Shown here piece by piece: positions 3,429 to 47,303 of a stretch of 64,000 bases of DNA (positions are counted from its first letter, which is position 1; each line of letters starts with the position of its first letter). The translations under genes were made by a program, and so were the position numbers. The stretch is taken from the IMG/VR virus record IMGVR_UViG_3300024272_000021, one strand, 5' to 3'. The notes beneath the pieces were generated by a model, which was not told the origin of the DNA, searched no databases, and saw only the letters and a list, made by a program, of their open reading frames with translations. Origin of the DNA: a virus. Taxonomy: Duplodnaviria; Heunggongvirae; Uroviricota; Caudoviricetes.

Positions 3429-3916
3429 GATTCACTCACTACCTTTGCATATTGATTGTCACTGGCAAGCTTAATTCCCAAGGTCTGATCATAATGTGGT
3501 TGTTGGTTTGGGATATATCGTCCAAACTTTACTATGATTGGGCCGTAATACTTTAGCCATTCTAACTTATCTTGAATTTCTTCTTCTCTATAACCAGTGT
3601 AAATTACAACTTCGTCTGGACTCCAGTACCTGAAATTTAGCAGGAAACACTGTAGGTCATCCCAACTATCCATAGGCTCTAATCCACCACACACTACAGC
3701 TTTAGTAATTGGATTATCCATATATCTTTCAATTAGTGAATTGACATGGATGTTAATATCGGGGGCTTGTGCGAGAGCACTGTTTTGACAACAATGCTCG
3801 CCGCACTCCTTTTCGCATTTCCATGTACAAGATGGAAATCCTATCACCATAGCTGGTTTTTTATAGCTTGTAAAATCTTCGTCTCGAATTTCTTTCACAA
3901 TCATATTAATCACCAA
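3425..3916 (-). CDS. nrdG: Anaerobic ribonucleotide reductase activating protein (NrdG-like radical SAM)
   Basis: CTWKCEKEC cysteine cluster and VVCGGLEP motif; adjacent to NrdD. Confidence 0.55.
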   Translation of the reverse strand: MVINMIVKEIRDEDFTSYKKPAMVIGFPSCTWKCEKECGEHCCQNSALAQAPDINIHVNSLIERYMDNPITKAVVCGGLEPMDSWDDLQCFLLNFRYWSPDEVVIYTGYREEEIQDKLEWLKYYGPIIVKFGRYIPNQQPHYDQTLGIKLASDNQYAKVVSES

Positions 3917-15613: not shown

Positions 15614-16158
15614 CTCAAATATTCTATTTTCCTATTTCTGTAAGTCTGGCTCGGTTTATACTTAAATATCACTTCGCTAATATCAAACTCAAAATTATAC
15701 ATGTCTGAGTTATAATATACAATATCAGTTGGAATAGCACATCTTGGTGTACAAGTAAAAGATCTAATTGTTGCTTCAGCGGCAATCATATCTCGTTTCA
15801 TTCCATAACGTTTTAGCCATTTCTTATTTATACGATGCTTCTTATGCCAACGCGCCTGAATCAGAATTGGTACATCCCAATATATTCTACGAGGTGTTTC
15901 TAGCGTTTCGAACATTGAATTAAATAGCGGCATGTTGATCTGTGTATTTTCACAAGCAAATTCTGCATTACCAATTGAATTAAGATTGATTGCAACATCC
16001 GACTCTGCTTTATCGGATAGCGGTGTGATAAATTCTTCAATTGTGCAACCTTCCGAGAACACAACTTGATTATCTGCAAGGTCAGATATCCACACTTTGC
16101 CAGGACTAAATGTTGCTATATTGCCGTTCATTGTTTGTACCTCAATTTCCAATTTCAA
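15610..16158 (-). CDS. Hypothetical protein
   Basis: ORF. Confidence 0.4.
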   Translation of the reverse strand: MKLEIEVQTMNGNIATFSPGKVWISDLADNQVVFSEGCTIEEFITPLSDKAESDVAINLNSIGNAEFACENTQINMPLFNSMFETLETPRRIYWDVPILIQARWHKKHRINKKWLKRYGMKRDMIAAEATIRSFTCTPRCAIPTDIVYYNSDMYNFEFDISEVIFKYKPSQTYRNRKIEYLR

Positions 16159-17389
16159 TCAGATACTTAATAGTCATCTGCTCTTCTTTGTAAACAACAA
16201 TCTCATCATTCCTCAGCATTCCTCTATCAGCATGAGCATGGAGGCAATTTGCACCAGGCTGAAACTGCTGAAGTTTATTGTAGTCAAGATTATAATATTT
16301 GCTATCAAAATTGTATACATCATAAGGTGTGCCGTATGCTACATCAAACAATGCCATATAAGCTGTATTATTACCGCCATGTGCCCAATAAGAACCCGAC
16401 AGAGAAGTGTATCCAATAGACTTCTGGCACTTAGGGGCATAGTAGCAACCGTAACCAAACATCTTGCCCGTAATAACTGCATTAGTAGGTCTTAGCACCA
16501 GGCCAGTCTTAATGATGCTCCAGAAATTTTCACTTCTACTTCCGTGGAACAACAATCTTGTATCCTTAATACCATTCTCTGCAACAAACTTATCAAAACG
16601 CTCCTGAGTTTTAAGATTCTTAACTCGCCAAGCCTTCCTAAATTTGCCTGCAGATTCGTTCATCAGAGTCTTAATAAGTGCTACGTCATCTGCCGTAGTT
16701 TCCTCCATCTCAAGACCAAGCTCTTCCAGAATAGTCTGCTGTTTCTTTTCAACTGTCTCAACAGGTTCATTATCAGGTTTCACATAAATCTGGCCGCGCA
16801 TAACGTCAAGAAGATCCTGCTCCTTGGAGATAATCTGTGCAAAATCTTCAACCTTATTAGCAAGATAATCTCTAACATTGCCCATCTTTCTCGGAATAAC
16901 AGTAAATAGCTTAAGCAGATTATCGTTAAACTCTTCAACTGCAGAACAAGAATTTGCAAGTGTATCAATAATCTTCTGTGCTGCGTCAACCATATCCTGA
17001 GTAACGGCGGATGCCTTGACGGTATAGTTCTTCTGAATAGTTTCACGAGCTAGACTCTGGAGTTTTTCTACGATAGCTCTTATAGCAGCATTCTCAATTT
17101 CTTTATAGGGACTTTCAGGATTGGTAGAGGAAATTTCCTCCACCAAATCCTTCTTTAGGTCTGTTATGTCCTGATAGCCCTTCTTAAGCTTGCTGCTAAT
17201 TTGCGAATCCCACTTGGACATAGGATAATATCTTGTAGTCTTAGTGGCATCAACTCTGCCATATTCAACTCTAAACTGTCCATCCTCAGGGAAAAGATTA
17301 TAATACTTATTATTGTTTGCAGTTGTTACCATAATCAAATAAGTAGGTCTAATCTCTGCCATAACAAAGCCTCCTCTTACAGTTCGCAA
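16142..17389 (-). CDS. PARP-like ADP-ribosyltransferase with an N-terminal WGR domain and intact H-Y-E catalytic triad
   Basis: FRVEYGRVDA (WGR); LLFHGSRSENFWSIIKTGL, TGKMFGYGCYYA and RNDEIVVYK match the PARP1 catalytic motifs. Confidence 0.75.
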   Translation of the reverse strand: MRTVRGGFVMAEIRPTYLIMVTTANNNKYYNLFPEDGQFRVEYGRVDATKTTRYYPMSKWDSQISSKLKKGYQDITDLKKDLVEEISSTNPESPYKEIENAAIRAIVEKLQSLARETIQKNYTVKASAVTQDMVDAAQKIIDTLANSCSAVEEFNDNLLKLFTVIPRKMGNVRDYLANKVEDFAQIISKEQDLLDVMRGQIYVKPDNEPVETVEKKQQTILEELGLEMEETTADDVALIKTLMNESAGKFRKAWRVKNLKTQERFDKFVAENGIKDTRLLFHGSRSENFWSIIKTGLVLRPTNAVITGKMFGYGCYYAPKCQKSIGYTSLSGSYWAHGGNNTAYMALFDVAYGTPYDVYNFDSKYYNLDYNKLQQFQPGANCLHAHADRGMLRNDEIVVYKEEQMTIKYLIEIGN

Positions 17390-22032: not shown

Positions 22033-23124
22033 TCAATGTGCTGCTTTATCTGCTTCGTGGAGCTTCATGATGTCCTGATACAACTTTTCGCCCCACAACT
22101 TACGGTATTTATTGTGTAATTTTTCGTTGTTGTCCTTCTCCCAATAATAAGGTTGCATATGCCAACGAATCATAACTGCTACGTCAAGAATATTGCACGC
22201 CATATTATAGAACAAAACATCGTATGATCCTACATGTTCATGATTATAATAATGTGCCTGATCTGTAATTTCACCTTTACTATTTTTGAAAGTCTTGGTG
22301 AAACATTTACCATTGTCATGTAGGGCACCAGCACCTCTTAGCGCTATAGAATGGTCGTCAATATCACGAACATTTTCAAAAATATAATCTAACGCCTTCT
22401 CAGAATGTTGCCCTAGAGTAAGAGTATGATGTGAATTGTCTTGATTAAAGTAACTCACCGTAGACATCCAATCAAGAAAACTGCGGCTCTTACAAGAACC
22501 GTTGGAAAATTCAATTTGAATATCATTCCATCCCTCGTACCAATATGGCGGATCAAATGAACGATACATTCTTTCAATAACATATTCGGGAACATGTCGT
22601 TCACGTTCAGAACTGCGCCTAATGCATTCTTCATATGGAGTTGCCATAACGACGCAAATCTTTTCACAAGGGATCTTATTAAGCTGCTGCAGAAATACCA
22701 TACGTTCCTTATAATGATGGTTGCAAGCGTCATAGATGGCACTTTTACCGCTTGCGAGGCAGTTCTTGATGCGCTTATGTAATTCAACAAATAACTCGTT
22801 GTTCCTAGACTGTTCATTAATGTCTCCAAATAACTCGGCACGAAGAGCATCTGAGCTAAACACAGTAGCATCATATTTCTTGGCGAGTTCCTGAGAATAT
22901 GTAGACTTACCGCTACAGGGCAAACCAACCATCATAATAAGCTTCGGTTTGTTCATTCTGGCTACCTCTTCATCTGTTCCTATATGATCTACGTATGGAC
23001 CACAATTCATGCAACCTTCACAAAAATCATTGTCTTTACTCATTACAATGTGATCAATATCATATTGGCTTGGATGAAAAAAATCTATAAAACATTTCTT
23101 ACAAAGCTCTGCCATTTTAATCAC
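22033..23124 (-). CDS. Bifunctional P-loop polynucleotide-kinase-like domain plus C-terminal HD-domain phosphohydrolase (RNA end-healing enzyme candidate)
   Basis: MMVGLPCSGKST Walker A; C-terminal H...HD motifs (HHTLTLGQHSEK, LHDNGK); N-terminal Cys cluster. Confidence 0.55.
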   Translation of the reverse strand: MIKMAELCKKCFIDFFHPSQYDIDHIVMSKDNDFCEGCMNCGPYVDHIGTDEEVARMNKPKLIMMVGLPCSGKSTYSQELAKKYDATVFSSDALRAELFGDINEQSRNNELFVELHKRIKNCLASGKSAIYDACNHHYKERMVFLQQLNKIPCEKICVVMATPYEECIRRSSERERHVPEYVIERMYRSFDPPYWYEGWNDIQIEFSNGSCKSRSFLDWMSTVSYFNQDNSHHTLTLGQHSEKALDYIFENVRDIDDHSIALRGAGALHDNGKCFTKTFKNSKGEITDQAHYYNHEHVGSYDVLFYNMACNILDVAVMIRWHMQPYYWEKDNNEKLHNKYRKLWGEKLYQDIMKLHEADKAAH

Positions 23125-23927
23125 CCAATCTCTTTCTTAATAGCAATCCTCATGATGTTATACTGCACATCATCTAAAAGTTTATCTACATCTTTATTAA
23201 CTTCAATATCAGTTTTAGCAATAAACTCATCACACATTTTTTCAATATGATACATCGCCTTTTCAGCAATAGCGCGAGCCGCATCTAAGTGAAATGGCTC
23301 AAGTTTTACTCCAGTAAGATACGCTGCCTTCTTGGTGTGCAAACAATCTGCGTAAGATTCACCTGAAATATATCTTTCAATATATTCTTCTATCCGTAGC
23401 AAATGATGAAATTCCTTGGGTGAATATCCAAACTTCTCAATATCATCATGGTGTGATGGAGATTCATGCTCCATTTGCTCATATTTTCTACGAGCCAAAC
23501 CGCACATAGTTTTGACAGCTTTGCACGGATCATAGTTTGCAATTAACTCATTGTTTTGAATCAATCTATTCCACTCTTTTGCATACAGAGGATTTACGAT
23601 GCAATATGGCGAGAATAAAATTTCAAGAAAATTGAGATTACATTTGCGGAATGTCTGTAACATAAGACGGATATCTTTCCAGTCAGTGTGTGAGTCATCC
23701 TCTCTTATATATGTAGTACTAATAGGTTGACGATTCATTGCAATGTCTTCAAACGTTGGAGTAAGAATTAGTTTTGTATCTACATCCGAATACATTGTTT
23801 CTAAGCCATAATTTTGACTGCCTTGTAGTACTAAACACACAATTCTATCTTCGGGAAAGTGCCTGAGAGCATCATCATAATGCTCCCGAACACGGTCCAT
23901 GATATATTCATCACTGTGATAATTCAT
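23121..23927 (-). CDS. Pol-beta-superfamily nucleotidyltransferase (minimal NTase)
   Basis: LVLQGSQNYGLETMYSDVD matches the GS-x9-13-D-x-D signature. Confidence 0.55.
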   Translation of the reverse strand: MNYHSDEYIMDRVREHYDDALRHFPEDRIVCLVLQGSQNYGLETMYSDVDTKLILTPTFEDIAMNRQPISTTYIREDDSHTDWKDIRLMLQTFRKCNLNFLEILFSPYCIVNPLYAKEWNRLIQNNELIANYDPCKAVKTMCGLARRKYEQMEHESPSHHDDIEKFGYSPKEFHHLLRIEEYIERYISGESYADCLHTKKAAYLTGVKLEPFHLDAARAIAEKAMYHIEKMCDEFIAKTDIEVNKDVDKLLDDVQYNIMRIAIKKEIG

Positions 23928-23940
23928 TTAATCACCTTCA

Positions 23941-25374
23941 TTAATCTTGTATTGTTTCTTCTTCCTGTGCTTCTTCCATATCGGGTTCAACAGCTTCCTC
24001 CTTGATAATGCCTTCTAAAACTTTAAAATTAAAATTCTTATGCTTATATACTGCAATATTAGGACGATTTACAATACGAGCAACTACACCTTCGCGTACG
24101 TGAGTCTTACCAACGGGGTCAGGACCATCAAAGTACTGCTCTACCTTGCGCAGAACATACTCTCCAGGGTCAACTGCATATGCCTTATCATCGACATAAT
24201 AACCAGCTTCATCCTCTGCGACTTCGCACTTGAACTCAGGAATCATGAAAGTCTCAAATACAGGCACATACTTTACGCCCATCTGATCGCAACGCTGACG
24301 CATCTGCTCAGGAGACATTTCAACGACATCGCCATCTTCATTTACCTGAGTCATACGATAGACATAAACTTCACACTTAGGAGGAATTACAGTATCAAAT
24401 TCTAGCACATCCGGTGCAGAAGAAGTGTAAACAGTATTCCAACTACCCGCAGGGTCGCAACCATAGGAGAACACGGTCTCCTCACCGTACTGCTTAGTGA
24501 AAGCCTTGTCAGAAATCTTAGAGTTCTTAACAGAAGCCATAATAGGAGTCTGCGCATTTACGAAACCAACGATTTCGTAATATACAACCTCACCCTTGCG
24601 CAGCTTGCCGAAGAACTTCTTCGCCATTGCATGACGGAACTCGTTATCAGAGTAGAAACCACCATCATGAGTTTCGTCCAGTACGACACGACGGGTACCA
24701 GTTACATAGTCATACTCGTAATAGATATCACCGGGCTTACGAGTCAACTTCTGCCACAGAGTGCGCTTCTTCTGCTTACGCAGAGGCAGATAGCCAGTAC
24801 GACCAGAAGTTCCATGCATCTTAAGAGTTAGTTCTACAATATCACCGGTCTTAAATTCGCCAAGATTATATGCAAGCTGCGCAGTATCAATATGCTCATA
24901 AAAAGTTGGTGCAAAATTAGCCTTTGCTCTCTTACCACCACCATGATAAGTAGAAGATGCATGATTACGCTTTGGGATATACTTCTTACAAATTTCCTTA
25001 CCGTTCAGAACAGAAATAGTATCTCCTTCTCTAAGGTCGGATATCTTACAGAAATCAGCAAGACAAGTTAGAGGTAGAAATAGTCCATCAGACTTCTCAC
25101 CACGAAGCTTTAGTGCTTTAATGTTGCGCTTTTCAGGATCTAGATAACCACCACAGGTGTTACCATTTTCATCCTTGCGACGAACTAGGTCATTCACTCT
25201 ACAAAATTCTTCGGAGAGCTGTCCATCTACAGGGAAATATACACCAAGCTGTCCTTCAGTGTAGTCCATGGAAACGATTACGGAGTTGCCAAAACATTCA
25301 CCAATCTGTAGTCGGTCTGCGTTAGAATGCTTATGTACATTCTTTAGAGTAGTAATAAAACCAGTGTAAGCCAT
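23941..25374 (-). CDS. ATP-dependent RNA ligase (Rnl2/Rnl5-like) with an N-terminal OB-like domain
   Basis: motif I LTLKMHGTSG (K-x-H-G-x), ~180-aa N-terminal domain; adjacent to kinase-HD and NTase. Confidence 0.6.
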   Translation of the reverse strand: MAYTGFITTLKNVHKHSNADRLQIGECFGNSVIVSMDYTEGQLGVYFPVDGQLSEEFCRVNDLVRRKDENGNTCGGYLDPEKRNIKALKLRGEKSDGLFLPLTCLADFCKISDLREGDTISVLNGKEICKKYIPKRNHASSTYHGGGKRAKANFAPTFYEHIDTAQLAYNLGEFKTGDIVELTLKMHGTSGRTGYLPLRKQKKRTLWQKLTRKPGDIYYEYDYVTGTRRVVLDETHDGGFYSDNEFRHAMAKKFFGKLRKGEVVYYEIVGFVNAQTPIMASVKNSKISDKAFTKQYGEETVFSYGCDPAGSWNTVYTSSAPDVLEFDTVIPPKCEVYVYRMTQVNEDGDVVEMSPEQMRQRCDQMGVKYVPVFETFMIPEFKCEVAEDEAGYYVDDKAYAVDPGEYVLRKVEQYFDGPDPVGKTHVREGVVARIVNRPNIAVYKHKNFNFKVLEGIIKEEAVEPDMEEAQEEETIQD

Positions 25375-25378
25375 ATTA

Positions 25379-26284
25379 TCATCCTTCCTTTATTACAATT
25401 TCACAATAATAACCACAATAGTTATCAAGGTGACTTGCCATTTCCTTCATTGTAGTATTGAGAGCTTTGGCCTCTTTAGGAGAGCGACCACTTCGCACAT
25501 ATCCATTAAAGAACATTGCGGCAACCCATGGTGCAGAAAAATATTTTACGTTACCAGTAGAAATATGAGTCAGCTTAACCTGCCAATTATCCTCTGTCGC
25601 GTCTCCAATAATATCATCAGCTTTAGTATGACAACCCCACTGTACCATGCGAAGATCTTTCAAATATTCATTTTCTTTCTTGGTAAAGAGCATACCGGGA
25701 AGCTTCATAAATCTTCTATTATTCTCAACAATTATCTTTGGCTGAGTAACGGGTATTGCAGTTTTATCTATTGAATCAATACCTTCAACGCACTCTTTGA
25801 GCATCATGGCATCATCCATAGCATCATGAATCTGTTCAACATTTTCTACATGACGTACCAGCGCGATTAGTTTCTTAAGAGGAATACCTTTGATAGAAAG
25901 ATAAGCTTTGACCTCCTGTGCATAATCAATTAGCATTGTTCGAACAGAAACCGCAAAACTAATTGCACGAACATCGGTCATATACTTAACCGTTTTATCT
26001 ATAAATGTCTTGTCTCCGCTTCCATAACAGAAATAACTCGGTATGGTATTATCATTGGTATTGATTACAAAATCAAAAAAATCATTAAACGCCTGATCTG
26101 CGGTAGGAGCGTTTTCAAGCATTTCATTTGTAATACCAGTGAGTTCAGTGATAAAATTATTAACTTTATTTCCATTAACAGGCTTAACTAGAGTCTGAAA
26201 AGTCTTACCGGTTTCACTAACGCAACCAATAGAAATAATTCTTTCAGAAAACTGTGTGGCCTCGAAATCAAGATAAAAGTTCAT
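25379..26284 (-). CDS. DEDD-family 3'-5' exonuclease (DnaQ/RNase T-like)
   Basis: YLDFEAT (Exo I) and HDAMDDAMM (Exo III) motifs. Confidence 0.6.
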   Translation of the reverse strand: MNFYLDFEATQFSERIISIGCVSETGKTFQTLVKPVNGNKVNNFITELTGITNEMLENAPTADQAFNDFFDFVINTNDNTIPSYFCYGSGDKTFIDKTVKYMTDVRAISFAVSVRTMLIDYAQEVKAYLSIKGIPLKKLIALVRHVENVEQIHDAMDDAMMLKECVEGIDSIDKTAIPVTQPKIIVENNRRFMKLPGMLFTKKENEYLKDLRMVQWGCHTKADDIIGDATEDNWQVKLTHISTGNVKYFSAPWVAAMFFNGYVRSGRSPKEAKALNTTMKEMASHLDNYCGYYCEIVIKEG

Positions 26285-32534: not shown

Positions 32535-32611
32535 TGGTCGGGGTGACAGGACTCGAACCTGCGGCCCCATGCTCCCAAAGCACGTGCGCTACCAAACTGC
32601 GCCACACCCCG
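32535..32611 (-). tRNA. tRNA-Pro (anticodon UGG), CCA encoded
   Basis: cloverleaf folded by hand: acceptor CGGGGTG/CACCCCG, anticodon loop TTTGGGA, T-arm GGTTCGAGTCC. Confidence 0.8.
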
Positions 32612-33344: not shown

Positions 33345-33417
33345 CGAAGTCAATTGGACTTGAACCAAATCCCTGCGAGCTACGCACTCGCCGTGCTGTC
33401 CGCCTACACCAGACTTC
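33345..33417 (-). ncRNA. tRNA-like RNA with imperfect cloverleaf (stem-loop GCGAG-TGCGTAG-CTCGC, T-arm TTCAAGT), no CCA; sits immediately downstream of the Ro60-like gene
   Basis: 7-bp terminal stem GAAGTCT/AGACTTC, T-loop-like GGTTCAAGTCC, non-canonical position 33. Confidence 0.4.
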
Positions 33418-33530
33418 TAAATCCCTGCTCCCTAATAGATGCTATTGTACAGATAGCGTATTCTATTAGCTGTACGTGGAGCATACTCAATATGGCTTTG
33501 TACTCACTACTCAAATATTATATTTTTAAA

Positions 33531-35126
33531 TTACCAGGTTAGTGCTTCCTCAACAGGAGCATAACGTTCAGAGTTCAGAGTTTCCAGTAGACACTCATAA
33601 GGATCAGTCTTGCCACTCATGACCATCTTTGCAACGTTAACGGAGAAGCCGCTAACCAGTGCCACACCAAGTTCATTTTCCTTTACAGGAATAGTACCGG
33701 TGCGAGAATTTACATTCCAGAACACAAGACGAGGAATCTGGTATCCTGCATCCGCATACCTCTTAGCAATTACGTCGAACAGTCGCTTATCAGGATTGCT
33801 GCCATATCTACCATTACCACACCTTGCGCAACTGTTAAATTCCATATCAGAGATAATCAGAATATTCTTAGGTAGTTCTTCCTGATGCATATGGTTATTA
33901 ATTGCAGTAGTAAGAATTAGATCGAACACCTTTTCAATATTTGTATCTGCTACTTCATTATGTGCAAAAGCAATCTGAAGCTTGTCGTGAAGAGACTTTG
34001 CCTTGCTGAAATCAACAAACTGAGGATTATGAGAGAAGGTAATATACTTGTCCTTAAATCCACCAGAGGAATGTTCCGCAAAGTAAATAGCAAGTGCATT
34101 GGCAACGTCAAGTGCTGTTACATTAGAATGAGGATCGACAGTACAAGTCATGCTACCAGAACCATCGGCTACAACAATAGTATTGTCACAACCATTAACC
34201 ATGTCAGGCAGTGCCTTCCACAGAGCCTCAATTGTTGCATCTTTTGCACCTAGACGAGAATACCAGCCGCCGTTACCCATGTACTTATGAACAACATCAT
34301 GAGGGAACAGAGTGGATGCATTAATCTTAGTTTCACCCTTTTCAAGCTTGTTAAGATATTCTCGGCGACGAGTTTCATCGTTTCTCAGGAATGCATTATT
34401 GTAGATAAGGTTTGCGCGAGAAGGAACTGCTTCATACTTAATTTCAGACCAGTTCTTATCAGACATCTTAACTTCAACAACATCAAGATACTTGCGAAGC
34501 TTACTGAGTGCCTTACGATATTCGCGCTCGGTTATGTGCAGTGCCTTACACAGCTTCTTACCATATCCCTTAGTCTTTGCAGAGGATGTATTAATAGAAG
34601 GCATCCACTTTGCGATTAGAGAAATGGAGTTTCCTGCGTTCATATTATCCCAGTCCTGCTTAAGCTGCTGATCGATAATCTTGTATATTACTTCGGCTGA
34701 TCTCTTATTATCAAGCAGACACCATAGATCGTCATAACGACCATACTCTGAAATTAGATTGATAATAGGAATAACCCTTGCAGGATTAGTTTCAATTAGA
34801 TTTTCAAGTACTACTCTGAACAGCCTACGCTCTCCAAGACCGCCACGAACATCTCTGGCATAAAACAGCCACTTCATAGCGAGAATCTCATCCTCTGCAA
34901 AAACTTTCATGAATCTCTTTGCAACTTCCGCATCAGTCATCTTGCGAAGAGATGCGACTGCGAAATTCAAATCGAGTAGTTCCTTACCAGTGGTTCTAAA
35001 TCCAACCATTCCATTTTCAGTGATGGAAACATTGTACTCGTTGTTTAGAGTCTGCTTAACTGCGTTCATAAATTCCATTGTATTTTCCTCCATTTTTGAT
35101 TTTATTCCTAAAACCTCAAGACACAT
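33531..35126 (-). CDS. Helical N-terminal domain plus C-terminal vWA/MIDAS protein; Ro60/TROVE-vWA-like (DUF2828-type) architecture
   Basis: VVADGSGSM MIDAS motif about 200 aa from the C-terminus; long helical N-region; 531 aa. Confidence 0.5.
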   Translation of the reverse strand: MCLEVLGIKSKMEENTMEFMNAVKQTLNNEYNVSITENGMVGFRTTGKELLDLNFAVASLRKMTDAEVAKRFMKVFAEDEILAMKWLFYARDVRGGLGERRLFRVVLENLIETNPARVIPIINLISEYGRYDDLWCLLDNKRSAEVIYKIIDQQLKQDWDNMNAGNSISLIAKWMPSINTSSAKTKGYGKKLCKALHITEREYRKALSKLRKYLDVVEVKMSDKNWSEIKYEAVPSRANLIYNNAFLRNDETRRREYLNKLEKGETKINASTLFPHDVVHKYMGNGGWYSRLGAKDATIEALWKALPDMVNGCDNTIVVADGSGSMTCTVDPHSNVTALDVANALAIYFAEHSSGGFKDKYITFSHNPQFVDFSKAKSLHDKLQIAFAHNEVADTNIEKVFDLILTTAINNHMHQEELPKNILIISDMEFNSCARCGNGRYGSNPDKRLFDVIAKRYADAGYQIPRLVFWNVNSRTGTIPVKENELGVALVSGFSVNVAKMVMSGKTDPYECLLETLNSERYAPVEEALTW

Positions 35127-35279
35127 ATTACGTATTTAGATTAAAAGTCTAAGCGTTATATAAGGTTGCTGTTCGTGCCTTTGGAGGTTTTATTTCACGA
35201 GAGACAATAAATATTTCTTAATTCTTGGCAAGAAAAACTTAAATGAGATTGCTGTTTGTCTCTCTTATTAAATTAGGTT

Positions 35280-35396
35280 TGGTCGAGCGAGAATGAGTCG
35301 AACATCCGTCTGCGGCTCCCAAAGCAATATCAAATTGCAGTTAAAGTCTTCATCAAGACTCAATTTTACGCCGTGCTACCGTTGCACCATCGCTCG
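35280..35396 (-). tRNA. Elongated tRNA-like gene (117 nt) with a ~40-nt internal insertion, CCA encoded; anticodon unresolved (contains a TTTGGGA Pro-like loop sequence)
   Basis: acceptor CGAGCGA/TCGCTCG, D-arm GTGC-AACGGTA-GCAC, T-arm GGATG-TTCGACT-CATTC; internal hairpins GTCTT-GATG-AAGAC and GCAAT-TTGAT-ATTGC. Confidence 0.45.
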
Positions 35397-35405
35397 ATAT
35401 AAAGT

Positions 35406-35531
35406 TTGCCAGAGGTGGGGCTCGAACCCACGACCACGAGCTTACAAGGCTATATCTGTAAACTTGCTGTACGTGAAATTTTCATTTCACGTTGGTTGAT
35501 GTACGTGCTCTAACCAACTGAGCTACTCTGG
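35406..35531 (-). tRNA. Elongated tRNA-like gene (126 nt) with a ~50-nt insertion holding a perfect 9-bp hairpin and the ACAGCAA motif
   Basis: acceptor GCCAGAG/CTCTGGC, D-arm GCTC-AGTTGGTTA-GAGC, T-arm GTGGG-TTCGAGC-CCCAC; direct repeat ACGTACA flanks part of the insertion. Confidence 0.45.
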
Positions 35532-35537
35532 CATATA

Positions 35538-35651
35538 GTGTGGGAGAAAGGAGTTGAACCTTTAACACTCGGATTCCTTGAAAGCTTGCTGTTAGTGGCA
35601 ATCATGTCACATTTAAGACTTGTCTGATGCTCTGCCATTGAGCTACTCCCA
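35538..35651 (-). tRNA. Elongated tRNA-like gene (114 nt) with a ~40-nt insertion containing the ACAGCAA motif
   Basis: acceptor GTGGGAG/CTCCCAC, D-arm GCTC-AATGGCA-GAGC, T-arm AAAGG-TTCAACT-CCTTT. Confidence 0.45.
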
Positions 35652-35660
35652 CATATAAAG

Positions 35661-35763
35661 TTGCGGCGGATGAGATTCGAACTCATGTAGTATCCTTATA
35701 CTAGAACATTGCTGTATGTATCTTAACTAGATGCGTTAGCCTTAAACCACTCGGCCACCGCCG
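35661..35763 (-). tRNA. Class II Ser-like tRNA (103 nt) with an ~18-nt extra segment in the anticodon-arm region containing ACAGCAA
   Basis: GCGGCGG-TG-GCCGAGTGGTTTAAGGC 5' half matches bacterial tRNA-Ser; variable-arm hairpin TAGTAT-AAGG-ATACTA; T-arm ATGAG-TTCGAAT-CTCAT. Confidence 0.45.
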
Positions 35764-35998
35764 CATATTCAATTAGTGGGATTTTAGAGAACTCTCGGAA
35801 TCGAACCAAGAAGCAACATATTTCCAGTATGTTTATGTAAAAATTGCTGTTCGTGCCACCCACTCGATGCACTTTAAAGCTGCCACCAGACGTTCTCATG
35901 TTTCAAGACGCATAATTTAAAGGCGGTTCAGACCTTTTAAAAGTAGAAACATAATAACTTAAAATCTTATTAATCTTTAAATTTGCTGTATGCGTCTT

Positions 35999-36017
35999 TC
36001 ATTAATTTTGTACTGTC
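35999..36017 (-). promoter_or_regulatory. Conserved promoter-like motif copy placed to drive leftward transcription of tRNA array 2
   Basis: cattaattttgtactgtcg; only a 10-codon mini-ORF follows. Confidence 0.5.
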
Positions 36018-36083
36018 GTTTGAACTGGATACAGTATAACATATATTCCATGTTCTGTCAATAGGGTTTCTAAATCTTAACAA

Positions 36084-36156
36084 AGCGTCCCAGGAGAGAT
36101 TCGAACTCCCGATCCACGGCTTAGAAGGCCGTTGCCTTATCCACTGGGCCACTGGG
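36084..36156 (-). tRNA. tRNA-Arg (anticodon UCU)
   Basis: acceptor GTCCCAG/CTGGGAC, anticodon arm ACGGC-CTTCTAA-GCCGT, T-arm GGGAG-TTCGAAT-CTCTC. Confidence 0.8.
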
Positions 36157-36248
36157 ACATAAGTGCATGGTAGTATATTCTGACGTCACGCCCCCATGCT
36201 GAGCGACTCTTTATCCTGAGTAAGGCGTGTTATCCTTCCGAATAACTA

Positions 36249-36341
36249 TGGCGGAGGTGGTGAGCTTCGAACTCACGCGCCGCATTTCTGCGACCTAAGA
36301 GGTTAGCAACCCCTCCCCTTCAACCACTTGGGTACACCTCC
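36249..36341 (-). tRNA. tRNA-Ser (anticodon GCU), class II, CCA encoded
   Basis: acceptor GGAGGTG/CACCTCC, anticodon loop TTGCTAA, long variable arm, T-arm GTGAG-TTCGAAG-CTCAC. Confidence 0.75.
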
Positions 36342-36347
36342 ATAGAG

Positions 36348-36434
36348 CGGAAGGAGTGGGATTTGAACCCACGGTAGTTTTACCTACGCTGGTTTTCAAG
36401 ACCAGTGCAATAAACCGGACTCTGCCACCCTTCC
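36348..36434 (-). tRNA. tRNA-Ser (anticodon UGA), class II
   Basis: GGAAGGGTGGCAGAGTCCGG...CTGGTCTTGAAAACCAG resembles bacterial tRNA-Ser(UGA); T-arm GTGGG-TTCAAAT-CCCAC. Confidence 0.75.
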
Positions 36435-36577
36435 GTATAACAACTACTTATTTTCCAGCAGTCGAATTCTGCGCTTAATCTTGTTAATAATATTCTCATT
36501 CGCAACAGGATCTCGCTGCTGTAGCATATGCATTCTCATCTTAAGCATTTCAATCTTACTGTTCATCTTACTTCCTC

Positions 36578-36810: not shown

Positions 36811-36885
36811 TGGAGGCCCAAGTCGGGAACGATCCGACGACTAGGGGTTACAAATCCCTTATTTTGCCAACTAAACTATTGGGCC
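36811..36885 (-). tRNA. tRNA-Thr (anticodon UGU), CCA encoded
   Basis: acceptor GGCCCAA/TTGGGCC, anticodon loop TTTGTAA, T-arm GTCGG-ATCGTTC-CCGAC. Confidence 0.65.
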
Positions 36886-36932: not shown

Positions 36933-37451
36933 TTATGTTGTTATATTATATTTTTTACGACCTTTTCGTCCATTGCCTATGTTCCCTGCTTTATATGTTT
37001 CAGTTAAAGAATGACAATTAGGACAAAGAAGCTCTAAATTATCTTCTAAATTATTAGTATAATCTCCATCTTTATGATGAACCTCAAGCGGAATCTTTCC
37101 GGTAAATAAATTCATTTCATTCCAACCACATTTACAGCATTTGTTATCATATTTTTCAATCAAATATCTCTTTATATAGCTTGAAATTGCATAAGGTTTT
37201 ACAATTCCGTCCTCTTGTCCATTCTTCCATCTTTCTATATAATTTACATATTCAAAATCACGTTGACACTTCGGAGAGCAATATTTTTGATTTTCTAGAG
37301 GCATTTCCCTTCCACAGTTTATACAATATTTATGTTTCTTTTCTTTTCGAATATTATTATAAGACGCCGCACAACTATTATTACAAAACTGTTTTATTTT
37401 GTATTCACTAGGGCTCATTTCTTTAATAGGTATATCTTGATTGCAATACAA
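36933..37451 (-). CDS. HNH endonuclease embedded in the tRNA region; the reading frame stays open upstream to about 37690 without an ATG, so the true start is uncertain
   Basis: EVHHKDGDYTNNLEDNLELLCPNCH HNH motif plus several CxxC pairs; track start is a TTG codon. Confidence 0.6.
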   Translation of the reverse strand: MYCNQDIPIKEMSPSEYKIKQFCNNSCAASYNNIRKEKKHKYCINCGREMPLENQKYCSPKCQRDFEYVNYIERWKNGQEDGIVKPYAISSYIKRYLIEKYDNKCCKCGWNEMNLFTGKIPLEVHHKDGDYTNNLEDNLELLCPNCHSLTETYKAGNIGNGRKGRKKYNITT

Positions 37452-37916
37452 ACATTTATTTTTATTATTTTTATACCATGTATCACGTTGTTCTTGTGTT
37501 AATTTGCTCCAGTGACTGCATTTTTGAACGTTTTTATTTTTAAAATCTCCAATTACTCCCGTTTTTATGAATCCACAGTCTTGGCATTCTCCATTATATA
37601 AATAACGTCCATATTTATCTTTTTCTTCTAATAATTTAATAATTTTATATATGCCAAACTGGCATCCTACATAAATATTTGGATTTATCCCATAATATCA
37701 ATCACTTCTTTTGTTGATAATAAAATGGCTGGGGATAGAGGTTCTGCCCCCCTACTTTTTGAGTCAAAGTCAAATGTACTGCTATTATACGAATCCCCAT
37801 TAGGTGGTTAACTAACTCTCTTACAACAACCAAGGATCAACACAGATTCGAACTGAGTTCCCCACCAGCTTCACACCAACGCCAAAGCTTAAGACCCAAG
37901 GTTTAGAGTTTAATAT

Positions 37917-37999: not shown

Positions 38000-38143
38000 C
38001 GGCCACAGTAGGACTCGAACCTACAACCTACCGGTTATGGAGGGATAGAGGAGATTTGAACTCCTATACTTTCTTTCCCGGGAAAGAAAAACCTTCCAGA
38101 GCTATCCCACAGCCGGTTGCTCCACCATTAAGCTATGTGGCCA
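38000..38143 (-). tRNA. tRNA-Asn (GUU) interrupted inside the anticodon (CTGT|TAA) by a 71-nt insertion
   Basis: outer acceptor GGCCACA/TGTGGCC, D-arm GCTT-AATGGTG-GAGC, anticodon stem ACCGG/CCGGT, T-arm GTAGG-TTCGAGT-CCTAC are all perfect; removing 38038-38108 restores the canonical loop CTGTTAA. Confidence 0.7.
38038..38108 (-). mobile_element. 71-nt intervening element inside tRNA-Asn: a tRNA top-half/minihelix mimic with its own 7-bp acceptor stem (GGGATAG/CTATCCC), T-arm (AGGAG-TTCAAAT-CTCCT), a CTTTC-CCGG-GAAAG hairpin and a 3' TCCA tail
   Basis: folded by hand from the minus strand; no D-arm or anticodon arm. Confidence 0.6.
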
Positions 38144-46244: not shown

Positions 46245-47303
46245 TCATATAATCTGTACTTCATTTGTATCCTCCAATTCATTTTGTATTGTTAATTGCA
46301 ATTTATCCCAATCTTCCTTAAACATCCATCTATAGCCGCCTGCAAATTCTTTTCTTTTATGACAACAGGCACTAATATTTTTACGGTTTATCTTTGTTTT
46401 CTTTTCAGCTTCTTGTAAGCTATTATAAGTATTCACTAGTTCATTATTTGTCGCAATTTGAAAAACCACTTTTTTATTATTGCCAGTATACTTATTATAA
46501 TAATTTTTTATTACTCCTTGCTCGTAATCTTTTTTATATTCCCAAACAAATCCTCCAGCAGACGCATTATTGTCATAATTATCACAACACCTATAAATAC
46601 TTCCATAATTTATTCCTGTTATAAGATAAGCATCATATGCAGACTTATATTCAGCAATATATTCTCCGTCTAATGTTAATTGAATTACTTCATCACCATT
46701 ACCATAATTAGGGTTTTTATCTCCAGAAAAATCTTTATGATTATCTCTCATTTTTTGTAAAATTTCGTCGCTTAAATTTTCCTTTTTATGAGCTTCTCGA
46801 TTTTTAGCCTTTGACTCATCAGTATGTTTGCGACCATACATTGGGGTATTCTTAGGGTCAGACATTCGATCTTTAGCTATTACCCTTGCTTTTTCTCTCC
46901 TAGTTTCATCTTTCCACACTTCTTTTAATATTGTTCTAATTTTATTTTTTGTTTCTTCGGATACTGCTCTACCTAAGGTCCCTTCTCCTCCATCCGTTTC
47001 GTTATATCCAAAAGATGGATTATTATATTTACGACAATTAGACTTATAAATGCTTATTAGTTCGATTTCTTTATTCTTTGCTTCATTTTCCGTAAGTTCA
47101 CCGGAGATAATAATATGTTCAAAATTATCCCATCCATACTTATTAATCGCTCTATAAAATACAATTTGATTCCTATAATTATAACCATTAATTCCCCATC
47201 GCTCTTCTGGTCTTTTGCTTGTAATCCCAATATACACTTTATTATTAATTTTGTTTTTATGCATATAAACGCACCAAATTCTATTATTTAATTCTTCAGT
47301 CAT
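46245..47303 (-). CDS. GIY-YIG homing endonuclease with NUMOD3-like repeats (freestanding)
   Basis: CVYMHKNKINNKVYIGIT GIY-YIG motif followed by repeated S/T-x-E-T/S-K-x-K-I/N helices. Confidence 0.7.
   Translation of the reverse strand: MTEELNNRIWCVYMHKNKINNKVYIGITSKRPEERWGINGYNYRNQIVFYRAINKYGWDNFEHIIISGELTENEAKNKEIELISIYKSNCRKYNNPSFGYNETDGGEGTLGRAVSEETKNKIRTILKEVWKDETRREKARVIAKDRMSDPKNTPMYGRKHTDESKAKNREAHKKENLSDEILQKMRDNHKDFSGDKNPNYGNGDEVIQLTLDGEYIAEYKSAYDAYLITGINYGSIYRCCDNYDNNASAGGFVWEYKKDYEQGVIKNYYNKYTGNNKKVVFQIATNNELVNTYNSLQEAEKKTKINRKNISACCHKRKEFAGGYRWMFKEDWDKLQLTIQNELEDTNEVQII

Follow-up and report, generated by a model that had tools for sequence, protein, structure and literature searches.

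The 64,000-nucleotide stretch of IMG/VR virus record IMGVR_UViG_3300024272_000021 (Caudoviricetes), hereafter called the window, carries on its minus strand eight tightly packed RNA units (35117–35998), which lie directly upstream of a gene for a 515 amino acid protein with DUF2828 and DUF7788 domains. We think it probable that these RNAs are tRNA-mimicking, Y-RNA-like partners of this protein, the predicted structure of which resembles Ro60, and that they are not intron-bearing tRNAs. The units share a module composed of a helix (H1) and the sequence ACAGCAA; H1 covaries among many phages, and the module accompanies the DUF2828 gene in a strand-specific manner. An earlier note on this DNA had described a set of tRNA-derived genes with a conserved inserted segment, a description which is supported here; it had also seen the Ro60-like neighbour and drew no connection between it and these RNAs.

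The array and its shared module

The elements of the array, from the promoter to the protein gene, are as follows; all are on the minus strand.

36033–36061, minus strand: sigma-70-type promoter with TTGACA, a 17-nucleotide (nt) spacer, TATACT and a TG extension
35904–35998, minus strand: stand-alone unit u1; H1 AAGACGCAT/ATGCGTCTT, 9 Watson-Crick base pairs (bp), closes the RNA; ACAGCAA at 35989–35983
35775–35897, minus strand: tRNA-like unit A; 6-bp acceptor stem GAGAAC/GTTCTC; T arm at 35810–35794; H1 hairpin GTGC..GCAC; ACAGCAA at 35850–35844
35662–35764, minus strand: tRNA-like unit B, 103 nt; long D loop and 6-bp extra arm on a class-II-like body; ACAGCAA at 35715–35709
35539–35652, minus strand: tRNA-like unit C, 114 nt; acceptor, D and T arms, with 48 nt in place of the anticodon loop; ACAGCAA at 35592–35586
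35407–35532, minus strand: tRNA-like unit T, 126 nt; 52-nt extra arm at 35503–35452; H1 hairpin at 35492–35471; ACAGCAA at 35470–35464
35451–35439, minus strand: inner hairpin of unit T, AGC-CTTGTAA-GCT, Thr-UGU-like
35280–35396, minus strand: tRNA-like unit D, 114 nt (35396–35283) plus an encoded CCA; 43-nt arm after GCG of the anticodon stem; H1 hairpin AGTCTT-GATG-AAGACT; variant motif ACTGCAA at 35341–35335; inner hairpin GC-TTTGGGA-GC, Pro-UGG-like
35198–35264, minus strand: stand-alone unit u7; H1 GAGAGACAA/TTGTCTCTC, 9 Watson-Crick bp; ACAGCAA at 35255–35249; hairpin payload
35117–35181, minus strand: stand-alone unit u8, within the 5' leader of the protein gene; H1 AAGGCACG/TGTGTCTT; ACAGCAA at 35172–35166
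35152–35136, minus strand: payload of u8, an anticodon-stem-loop mimic TTAGA-CTTTTAA-TCTAA, tRNA-Lys-UUU-like
33531–35078, minus strand: gene for the 515 amino acid protein; DUF2828 (Pfam PF11443) and DUF7788, a von Willebrand factor A (vWA) domain (PF25043); PHROG 850 'RNA-binding protein'

From this layout we propose that a strong promoter, eight small non-coding RNA genes and the Ro60-like protein gene would form a single operon. Neighbouring units are 5–15 nt apart, all behind the one promoter, which agrees with the consensus at 11 of 12 positions and is the best-scoring site within 33400–36500. Between it and the protein gene no terminator-like site was found, and equivalent promoters precede the arrays in two related loci (L001 and L003; L numbers designate the loci compared), all of which is consistent with co-transcription of the RNAs and the gene. 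The longest open reading frame (ORF) of the protein gene begins at 35126, inside u8; database homologues and a ribosome-binding site favour the ATG at 35078. Three ORFs of 58–68 codons that overlap the RNA units (35510–35686 and 35723–35899 on the minus strand, 35293–35499 on the plus strand) are almost certainly spurious.

ACAGCAA, which reads TTGCTGT on the plus strand, occurs in seven exact minus-strand copies within 35166–35989. The earlier note had listed these seven same-orientation copies, and we add the ACTGCAA variant of unit D (35335–35341); just two further copies of ACAGCAA are present elsewhere in the 64 kb. In every unit a helix strand directly precedes the motif. In u1, u7 and u8 the partner strand is found 39–69 nt downstream, and the 5' and 3' ends of the unit are therefore paired through H1. 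For A, T and D the partner strand is immediately upstream instead, such that H1 is a hairpin followed by the motif, as in unit D, which reads AGTCTT-GATG-AAGACT-tta-ACTGCAA. The terminal and hairpin forms are thus circular permutations of one design consisting of H1, single-stranded ACAGCAA and the remaining RNA. Helix and motif are clear in six of the eight units of the window (u1, u7, u8, A, T and D); in B and C a weak hairpin before the motif was seen by inspection only, that of B being the 4-bp ATCT/AGAT, and both were missed by the helix scan. We propose to define the class by a helix of approximately 9 bp, the 5' strand of which abuts AC(A/U/C)GCAA and which either closes the RNA or is closed as a hairpin.

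The first helix scan, which allowed G-U pairs and one mismatch, did not discriminate, since 14% of random positions passed it. Weight was therefore placed on covariation and on motif statistics from loci selected by protein. Among 56 distinct stand-alone units from many phages, chosen for at least eight of nine H1 pairs, double changes were observed at all nine pairs; one pair, for example, is AU in 30 units, GC in 12, UA in 8 and CG in 5. The covariation value of H1 in these units was 0.62, versus 0.20 for shuffles and 0.05–0.23 when the partner strand was slid. The conserved positions are the outer part of H1 (AAGRC/GYCUU) and a G following the 3' strand. No family in Rfam 15 matched the H1 and ACAGCAA module, and no description of these RNAs, or of an RNA partner for DUF2828, was found in the literature covered, which mostly excluded subscription journals.

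Linkage to a Ro60-like protein

A nucleotide search with the 1-kb array region against 50,697 phage records gave no matches, and relatives were therefore reached through the protein. Eighty IMG/VR loci were selected by protein similarity alone (37–79% identity) and their flanks of 2.5 kb on either side were examined. ACAGCAA was the most frequent of all 7-mers in the gene-strand flanks, with 365 sense and 17 antisense copies against approximately 24 expected, and 78 of the 80 loci had at least one copy. Close relatives from gut metagenomes possess syntenic arrays of 4–10 units upstream of the DUF2828 gene, and the order of the units is syntenic in phages at 63–81% protein identity. Orthologues of the first unit, u1, are present in L001, L002, L008 and L011, and of u7 in L001, L002, L007 and L013; the minimum-free-energy folds of both window units have z scores of -3.5. 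Unit u8 has a positional orthologue in every related locus, with compensatory changes in H1 and a 7-nt loop which is Lys-, Asn-, Tyr- or Cys-like.

A blind scan for the RNA pattern AAAGACNCNNACAGCAA alone revealed 127 matches, 19 of them in loci holding a DUF2828 gene. Under a loose criterion for the closing helix (at most one mismatch in eight, G-U allowed) all 19 of these possess it, as do 49 others, and a DUF2828 gene accompanies none of the 59 matches lacking the helix.

The module also flanks homologues of the protein in Vibrio phage KVP40, Enterococcus phage VRE9_3, Bacillus phage PK-3, Felixounavirus Andreotti, Listeria phage LP-125 and Mycobacterium phage LeBron. In the Felixounavirus and in LeBron the units are situated downstream of the gene, scattered among tRNAs. 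Escherichia phage Andreotti (L133, 5712–6940) has three unannotated ACAGCAA units in the gaps between annotated tRNA genes, with H1 AGACCNNTT/..GGTCT-GG, downstream of the DUF2828 ('vWFA') gene; one of these encloses a permuted domain of T arm, acceptor and D arm. In KVP40 (L004, 2960–3030) the sole ACAGCAA is in the 5' untranslated region (UTR) of the DUF2828 gene, where the flanking GACAT could pair with an ATGTC that contains the start codon; this copy looks like a translational operator. Phage LP-125 (L134, 2465–3016) has, approximately 1 kb upstream of DUF2828, a ROOL-RNA-like match of 87.4 bits, the gathering score being 99.1.

A sequence search of the PDB with the DUF2828 protein returned nothing relevant. 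The AlphaFold2 model, built from 46 diverse homologues, had a mean predicted local distance difference test (pLDDT) score of 83 and a predicted template modelling score (pTM) of 0.83. When it was compared with the PDB using Foldseek, the top eight matches were all Ro60/TROVE proteins (E-values 2e-9 to 3e-6; template modelling score approximately 0.54 for the best six), at sequence identities of 11–16%. Among these were Ro60 of Thermus phage phiLo (9kop), which was the best, Xenopus Ro with and without RNA (1yvp being the Y RNA-bound form) and Deinococcus Rsr. The matches of the model that followed were isolated vWA domains only, full-length matches being solely with Ro60/TROVE. Homologues of DUF2828 are present in 704 phage records.

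tRNA-like architecture, payloads and other features

Units B, C, T and D possess perfect 7-bp acceptor stems with D and T arms in cloverleaf order, confirming the four genes of 103–126 nt that the earlier note had pointed out as a minimum. To these may be added a fifth tRNA-like unit, A, with its 6-bp acceptor, and three motif copies belong to units that are not tRNA-like. An extra segment is indeed present in each long gene, but it measures 22–52 nt rather than the 18–50 nt first given. The 9-bp hairpin ACGTGAAAT-GAAA-ATTTCACGT and the direct repeat ACGTACA that had been reported were both located in T; the only intron matches in Rfam, at 14–18 bits, paired the GAAA hairpin with domain 5 of group II introns and were rejected as chance. 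It had further been stated that no normal anticodon arm can be drawn, which holds for B and C, where a continuous 5-bp stem with a 7-nt loop is absent and no convincing arm is found; in T and D the arm can be drawn but is interrupted. ARAGORN called none of B, C, T and D as a tRNA. With the Rfam tRNA model (RF00005) C alone exceeded the gathering score (50.3 bits, with a 48-nt insertion), B scored 14.5 bits, T 16.5 bits over its 3' part only, and D was not matched. A covariance model, R1, gave 29 bits for A, 37.6 for B, 51.5 for C and 59.6 for D, values that show tRNA-likeness only; it was rejected as a means of telling these RNAs from ordinary tRNAs, since a canonical tRNA-Lys scored 48.7 bits against the 37.6 of B.

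The anticodon arm of T reads C27-G28, then the 52-nt insert, then AGC-CTTGTAA-GCT-CG. RNAalifold analysis of ten T homologues, with no input structure, recovered the acceptor, the D stem, the H1 hairpin, an inner hairpin of 3 bp with a 7-nt loop, and the T arm. When the two outer pairs of the anticodon stem were added, 96.8% of positions were paired and 19 of 29 pairs showed compensatory changes, a result reached by none of 500 shuffles. The insert of this class is thus placed by the alignment with related arrays as an extra arm that interrupts the anticodon stem after nt 28 and before nt 29. The fold of unit T itself has a z score of -5.0. Unit D reads GCG, then the 43-nt insert, then GC-TTTGGGA-GC-CGC, which is the plan of T shifted one pair inward (nt 29/30); its outer stem covaries, being GCG/CGC in the window, GTG/CAC in L002 and ACG/CGT in L001. 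In unit A the H1 loop GAGTGGG can form a pseudoknot with CCCACT (35780–35775), just 3' of the acceptor, the whole spanning 35775–35862, and this pairing of loop and trailer covaries also (GGGTGGG/CCCACC in L002, GGACGGC/GCCGTC in L103). Unit B has no recognisable anticodon loop and unit C no clean anticodon hairpin; the orthologues of C in L001, L003 and L013 bear a GGG (Pro-like) loop.

The orthologues of T keep the body and change the loop. The anticodon-like triplet is TGT in the window, TTT in L001, GTT in L007–9 and GTA in L011, and L002 has an 8-nt loop; the acceptor stem is the same or nearly so among them, and anticodon identity is not conserved. Moreover, T and D of the window repeat the anticodons of ordinary tRNAs of this phage, namely Thr-TGT (36811–36885) and Pro-TGG (32535–32611). 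In total, 107 distinct RNAs combining a tRNA-like body with the module were collected, and their inner loops resemble those of Asn, Ser, Cys, Thr, Lys, Arg, Pro, Asp, Ile and others. The L002 RNA with the 8-nt inner loop (CTTTGTAA) lies at 3503–3627. If decoded, the inner loops in L155 (CTTCAAA, UCA) and L206 (CTTTAAA, UUA) would read stop codons.

Among 118 distinct stand-alone units, the median payload was 40 nt long. A 7-nt loop in which position 2 is U and position 6 a purine was seen in 35 predicted payload hairpins, where shuffles gave one. The commonest payload loops are CTTTTAA (tRNA-Lys-like, eight occurrences) and CTGTTAA (tRNA-Asn-like, seven), and a T-loop is present in 22 payloads. 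Some units elsewhere, in phages PK-3, Andreotti and LeBron, hold a permuted T arm, acceptor-like hairpin and D arm inside the terminal stem.

Two further tRNA matches in this region were not called by ARAGORN. One (38000–38142, minus strand; Rfam 56.4 bits) has an insert of approximately 70 nt in the anticodon-loop region, which holds a minihelix resembling an acceptor and T arm (GGGATAG...GGAGTTCAAATCTCC...CTATCCC). This insert lacks the ACAGCAA module and is therefore of a different kind from those of the array, a distinction that the earlier note had also made. The other (37729–37799, minus strand; 43.7 bits) has an atypical T arm, GGGGGGCAGAACCTCT. The window also encodes, on the minus strand, a large serine recombinase (86–2023), a PARP-family ADP-ribosyltransferase (16142–17389), an HNH endonuclease inside the tRNA region (36933–37451) and a GIY-YIG/NUMOD homing endonuclease (46245–47303).

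Interpretation and comparison with known systems

Bacterial and phage Ro60 genes adjoin Y RNAs, the effector domain of which mimics tRNA and the terminal stem of which binds Ro60 (PMC4201824). In the array described here, H1 (approximately 9 bp, often AAGRC.../...GYCUU-G) with single-stranded ACAGCAA would be the binding handle for the Ro60-like protein, and the RNAs would therefore be functional analogues of the Y RNAs bound by Ro60. The remainder of each RNA would be a tRNA-shaped payload on display. In the stand-alone units the H1 formed by the ends encloses an anticodon-stem-loop mimic, a T arm or, in other phages, a whole permuted YrlA-like tRNA-like domain. The elongated tRNAs have the reversed topology, with their ends at a normal acceptor stem, so that processing of the RNase P/Z type is expected, and with the H1 hairpin on an extra arm which, in T and D, projects from the 5' strand of the anticodon stem. 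The array RNAs are most likely stable mimics of tRNA that do not decode and are carried by a Ro60-like ring; they are probably not precursors from which an intron is removed. The leader copy, u8, may allow the protein to regulate its own translation, which is speculative and would be compatible with binding.

Several observations weigh against this proposal, the support for which is entirely comparative. Units B and C of the window do not fold convincingly. The percentage of H1 positions paired in the 56 stand-alone units is partly circular, pairing having been a condition of their selection; the diversity of pair types does not suffer from this. A second helix in fixed register, between the 5 nt after the motif and the 5 nt before the 3' strand of H1, was paired at 40%, the same as in shuffles; AU-rich base helices can be drawn by eye in single units, in variable registers. 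Were the arm taken out of T or D, an anticodon stem of five perfect pairs would remain, closed by a 7-nt loop of canonical form, and D has an encoded CCA, as do real tRNAs of this phage; both features fit an intron or a real tRNA equally well. The conserved element is a helix with ACAGCAA and not the GNCGAA motif and bulged helix of canonical Y RNAs, and the YrlA model misses the module, matching tRNA-like parts of the window at 24 and 18.6 bits against a threshold of 69. Finally, the Ro60-like gp130 of Felixounavirus Bas63, which to judge from its genus and gene position is presumably a DUF2828 homologue, countered the ppl defence alone, from a plasmid or from T7 (PMC11482910), and at least that activity therefore needs no phage-encoded RNAs.

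The reading of the earlier note, that these are intron-containing or otherwise processed tRNAs, would have a segment of 22–52 nt excised by a protein-dependent pathway and the exons ligated into working tRNAs. Such a pathway might draw on the Ro60-like protein for recognition, on some endonuclease for cleavage and on the kinase and RNA ligase of the phage itself, and the supply of tRNA could thereby become conditional. Without their inserts T and D, like many homologues, would possess a 5-bp stem and a 7-nt loop with U33 and purine 37 (anticodons UGU and UGG); CCA is encoded by D and by its orthologues. The phage also has an RNA-repair-like cassette (22033–26284, minus strand) of an AAA_33 kinase, an RlaP nucleotidyltransferase ('RNA repair pathway'), an RNA ligase with a PHA02142 oligonucleotide-binding (OB) domain and an RNase T-family exonuclease, and LP-125 has an RtcB ligase gene 1.3 kb downstream of its DUF2828 gene. 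Nevertheless we regard excision as distinctly unlikely. The module is present in at least 118 exon-less RNAs, the two ends of which are paired by its helix, and it accompanies the Ro60-like gene in phages that are only very distantly related. Self-splicing would require inserts far larger than these, and Rfam revealed no core of a group I or II intron; from inspection of the covariation-supported structure, the insertion is inside a stem strand at a three-way junction and not at a bulge-helix-bulge, and no splicing endonuclease was found in the subset of window ORFs scanned against Pfam. The anticodon differs from one close orthologue to the next (Thr, Lys, Asn and Tyr types), those of T and D duplicate canonical tRNAs, and B and C would be left without a usable anticodon arm. 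If instead the RNAs decoded as aminoacylated tRNAs while permanently bearing the extra arm, their intact acceptor, D and T arms, the canonical anticodon-like loops of T, D and many homologues, and the CCA of D would be accounted for. The ribosome contacts the anticodon stem of tRNA in the region of bp 28–30, which is where the 43–52-nt arm falls. This, together with the 8-nt loop of L002, the missing loops of B and C, anticodon identities that vary on an acceptor stem that hardly changes, if at all, and bare-hairpin payloads within the same family, makes decoding very improbable.

Alternatively, helix and ACAGCAA could be mainly a cis-acting signal of the operon, either a site for cleavage or stability that divides the polycistronic transcript into its units or a translational operator of the protein gene, and not the handle of a trans-acting ribonucleoprotein (RNP). 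The 5–15 nt spacing behind one promoter, the unit that is always present in the leader some 40 nt before the start codon, and the sole KVP40 copy, the candidate helix of which (GACAT/ATGTC) takes in the start codon, would all suit such a signal. We consider it unlikely, as the units of the Felixounavirus and LeBron are downstream of the gene among tRNAs, and a pure processing role leaves unexplained both the conserved tRNA and anticodon-loop payloads and the hairpin form inside tRNA-like bodies; a cis role is, in any case, compatible with binding of the protein. That the units are decayed tRNA pseudogenes, or tRNA genes struck by a mobile repeat resembling a miniature inverted-repeat transposable element (MITE), with no function at the RNA level, is hardly credible. 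Repeated elements in a tRNA-rich region that also has HNH and GIY-YIG homing endonuclease genes could suggest it, but all that the copies have in common is the 7-nt motif and a small number of positions in the helix, the changes between helices are compensatory, and the acceptor stems are perfect, none of which would be expected of decaying DNA or of DNA that moved recently. This reading, and those of a DNA-level repeat or a terminator, were rejected because of the strand bias relative to the gene (365 to 17), the compensatory changes and the synteny of the units at 63–81% protein identity.

If the RNAs are partners of the Ro60-like protein, perhaps the RNP presents tRNA or anticodon-loop baits in a conflict over tRNA cleavage and repair, where it could serve for decoy, for sensing or as a platform for repair. 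The idea is speculative and is suggested by the prevalence of Lys and Asn loops, the fast switching of loops and the presence of RNA-repair genes. Anticodon nucleases include PrrC, RloC, colicin-E5-like enzymes and the PARIS and retron effectors. In its full form the idea would make the protein and its ACAGCAA RNAs a counter-defence particle that shows a changeable library of baits, most commonly Lys-UUU and Asn-GUU, with Tyr, Thr, Pro, Ser and Cys types as well; it would trap, sense or misdirect host enzymes attacking anticodon loops, or would pass damaged tRNAs to phage RNA repair. We put this forward very tentatively and think it rather doubtful. Were it true, the fast switching of anticodons between related phages would be the signature of an arms race.

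The phages with DUF2828 include Felix O1-like coliphages, Salmonella, Listeria (LP-125), Enterococcus and Staphylococcus phages, KVP40 and cluster L mycobacteriophages, among them much-used model and therapy phages. Since the sequence signature marks the likely partner RNAs of DUF2828, the biology is directly testable. The ACAGCAA RNAs would account for unannotated gaps and odd "tRNA-like" calls in phage tRNA arrays, and we suggest that their genes should not be labelled as tRNAs, pseudogenes or small ORFs.

Among known systems, the introns of tRNAs (bacterial and phage group I introns, and the archaeal bulge-helix-bulge type, non-canonical positions included) are similar in that an extra segment breaks the anticodon arm, and its removal from T or D restores a canonical arm. 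They differ from the array inserts, which are 22–52 nt without a ribozyme core, form a three-way junction and have their element also outside tRNAs. The species 1 and 2 RNAs of coliphage T4 (rnaC and rnaD) are stable small RNAs of a tRNA cluster with tRNA-like features and unknown function, as the array RNAs would be; the module was not found in them, and the phages listed as having a DUF2828 homologue do not include T4.

A close parallel is YrlA with Ro60/Rsr (RF02553; Chen et al. 2014, PMC4201824). In both cases small RNAs, several per locus being possible, lie beside a gene for a protein of the Ro60 fold (here on the same strand), and combine a protein-binding stem (putative here) with a tRNA-mimic domain of T arm, D arm and acceptor-like stem. 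The units of PK-3, Andreotti and LeBron even have the permuted order of T arm, acceptor and D arm, that of LeBron scoring 39.8 bits with the YrlA model against the threshold of 69. Over the array itself, Rfam at E-values up to 10 gave tRNA, two sub-threshold YrlA matches and chance matches only. The 24-bit YrlA match begins in the T arm of unit C and continues into unit T as far as its D arm; a permuted RNA was rejected here, since each 7-bp acceptor is formed inside one unit and none is formed between units, and the match is explained by two tRNA-like genes standing side by side. The window protein, furthermore, is DUF2828/DUF7788 and not Pfam TROVE. The tRNA-like RNAs of the window are not permuted, having their ends at the acceptor stem and the proposed handle on an anticodon-stem arm; many ACAGCAA RNAs carry an anticodon-hairpin mimic alone, and arrays reach 8–10 units.

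Ro60 of Thermus phage phiLo binds two upstream Y-like RNAs, Yrl1 and Yrl2 (PMC12135203; PDB 9kop, 9l5y). As in the window, a phage protein of the Ro60 fold, which is also the best structural match of the window protein, has small RNAs just upstream, for which binding has been shown in phiLo. In contrast, phiLo Ro60 is a canonical TROVE protein and its two RNAs have a CGAA-bulge stem and are not described as mimics of tRNA or anticodon. In phage Bas63, gp130 is encoded directly upstream of a tRNA array and counters the ppl defence (preprint, PMC11482910), and the authors speculated that some of the neighbouring 'tRNAs' are Y RNAs used by gp130 (PMC11482910). No RNA partner was identified there; in Andreotti the homologous position is occupied by the DUF2828 gene, with its three ACAGCAA units in the gaps of the tRNA array. 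Since gp130 counters a defence, and the payloads resemble anticodon loops cut by nucleases, the system may be a widespread and unrecognised layer of tRNA conflict. With respect to Ro60 and Y RNAs, what is new is the protein family, the RNA motif, the large arrays, the anticodon-hairpin payloads and a non-permuted tRNA topology with its candidate handle on the anticodon stem. The principle of a ring protein with tRNA-mimic RNA would be extended to another family of proteins, one in which the RNA code is not the same and the topology of the RNA is reversed.

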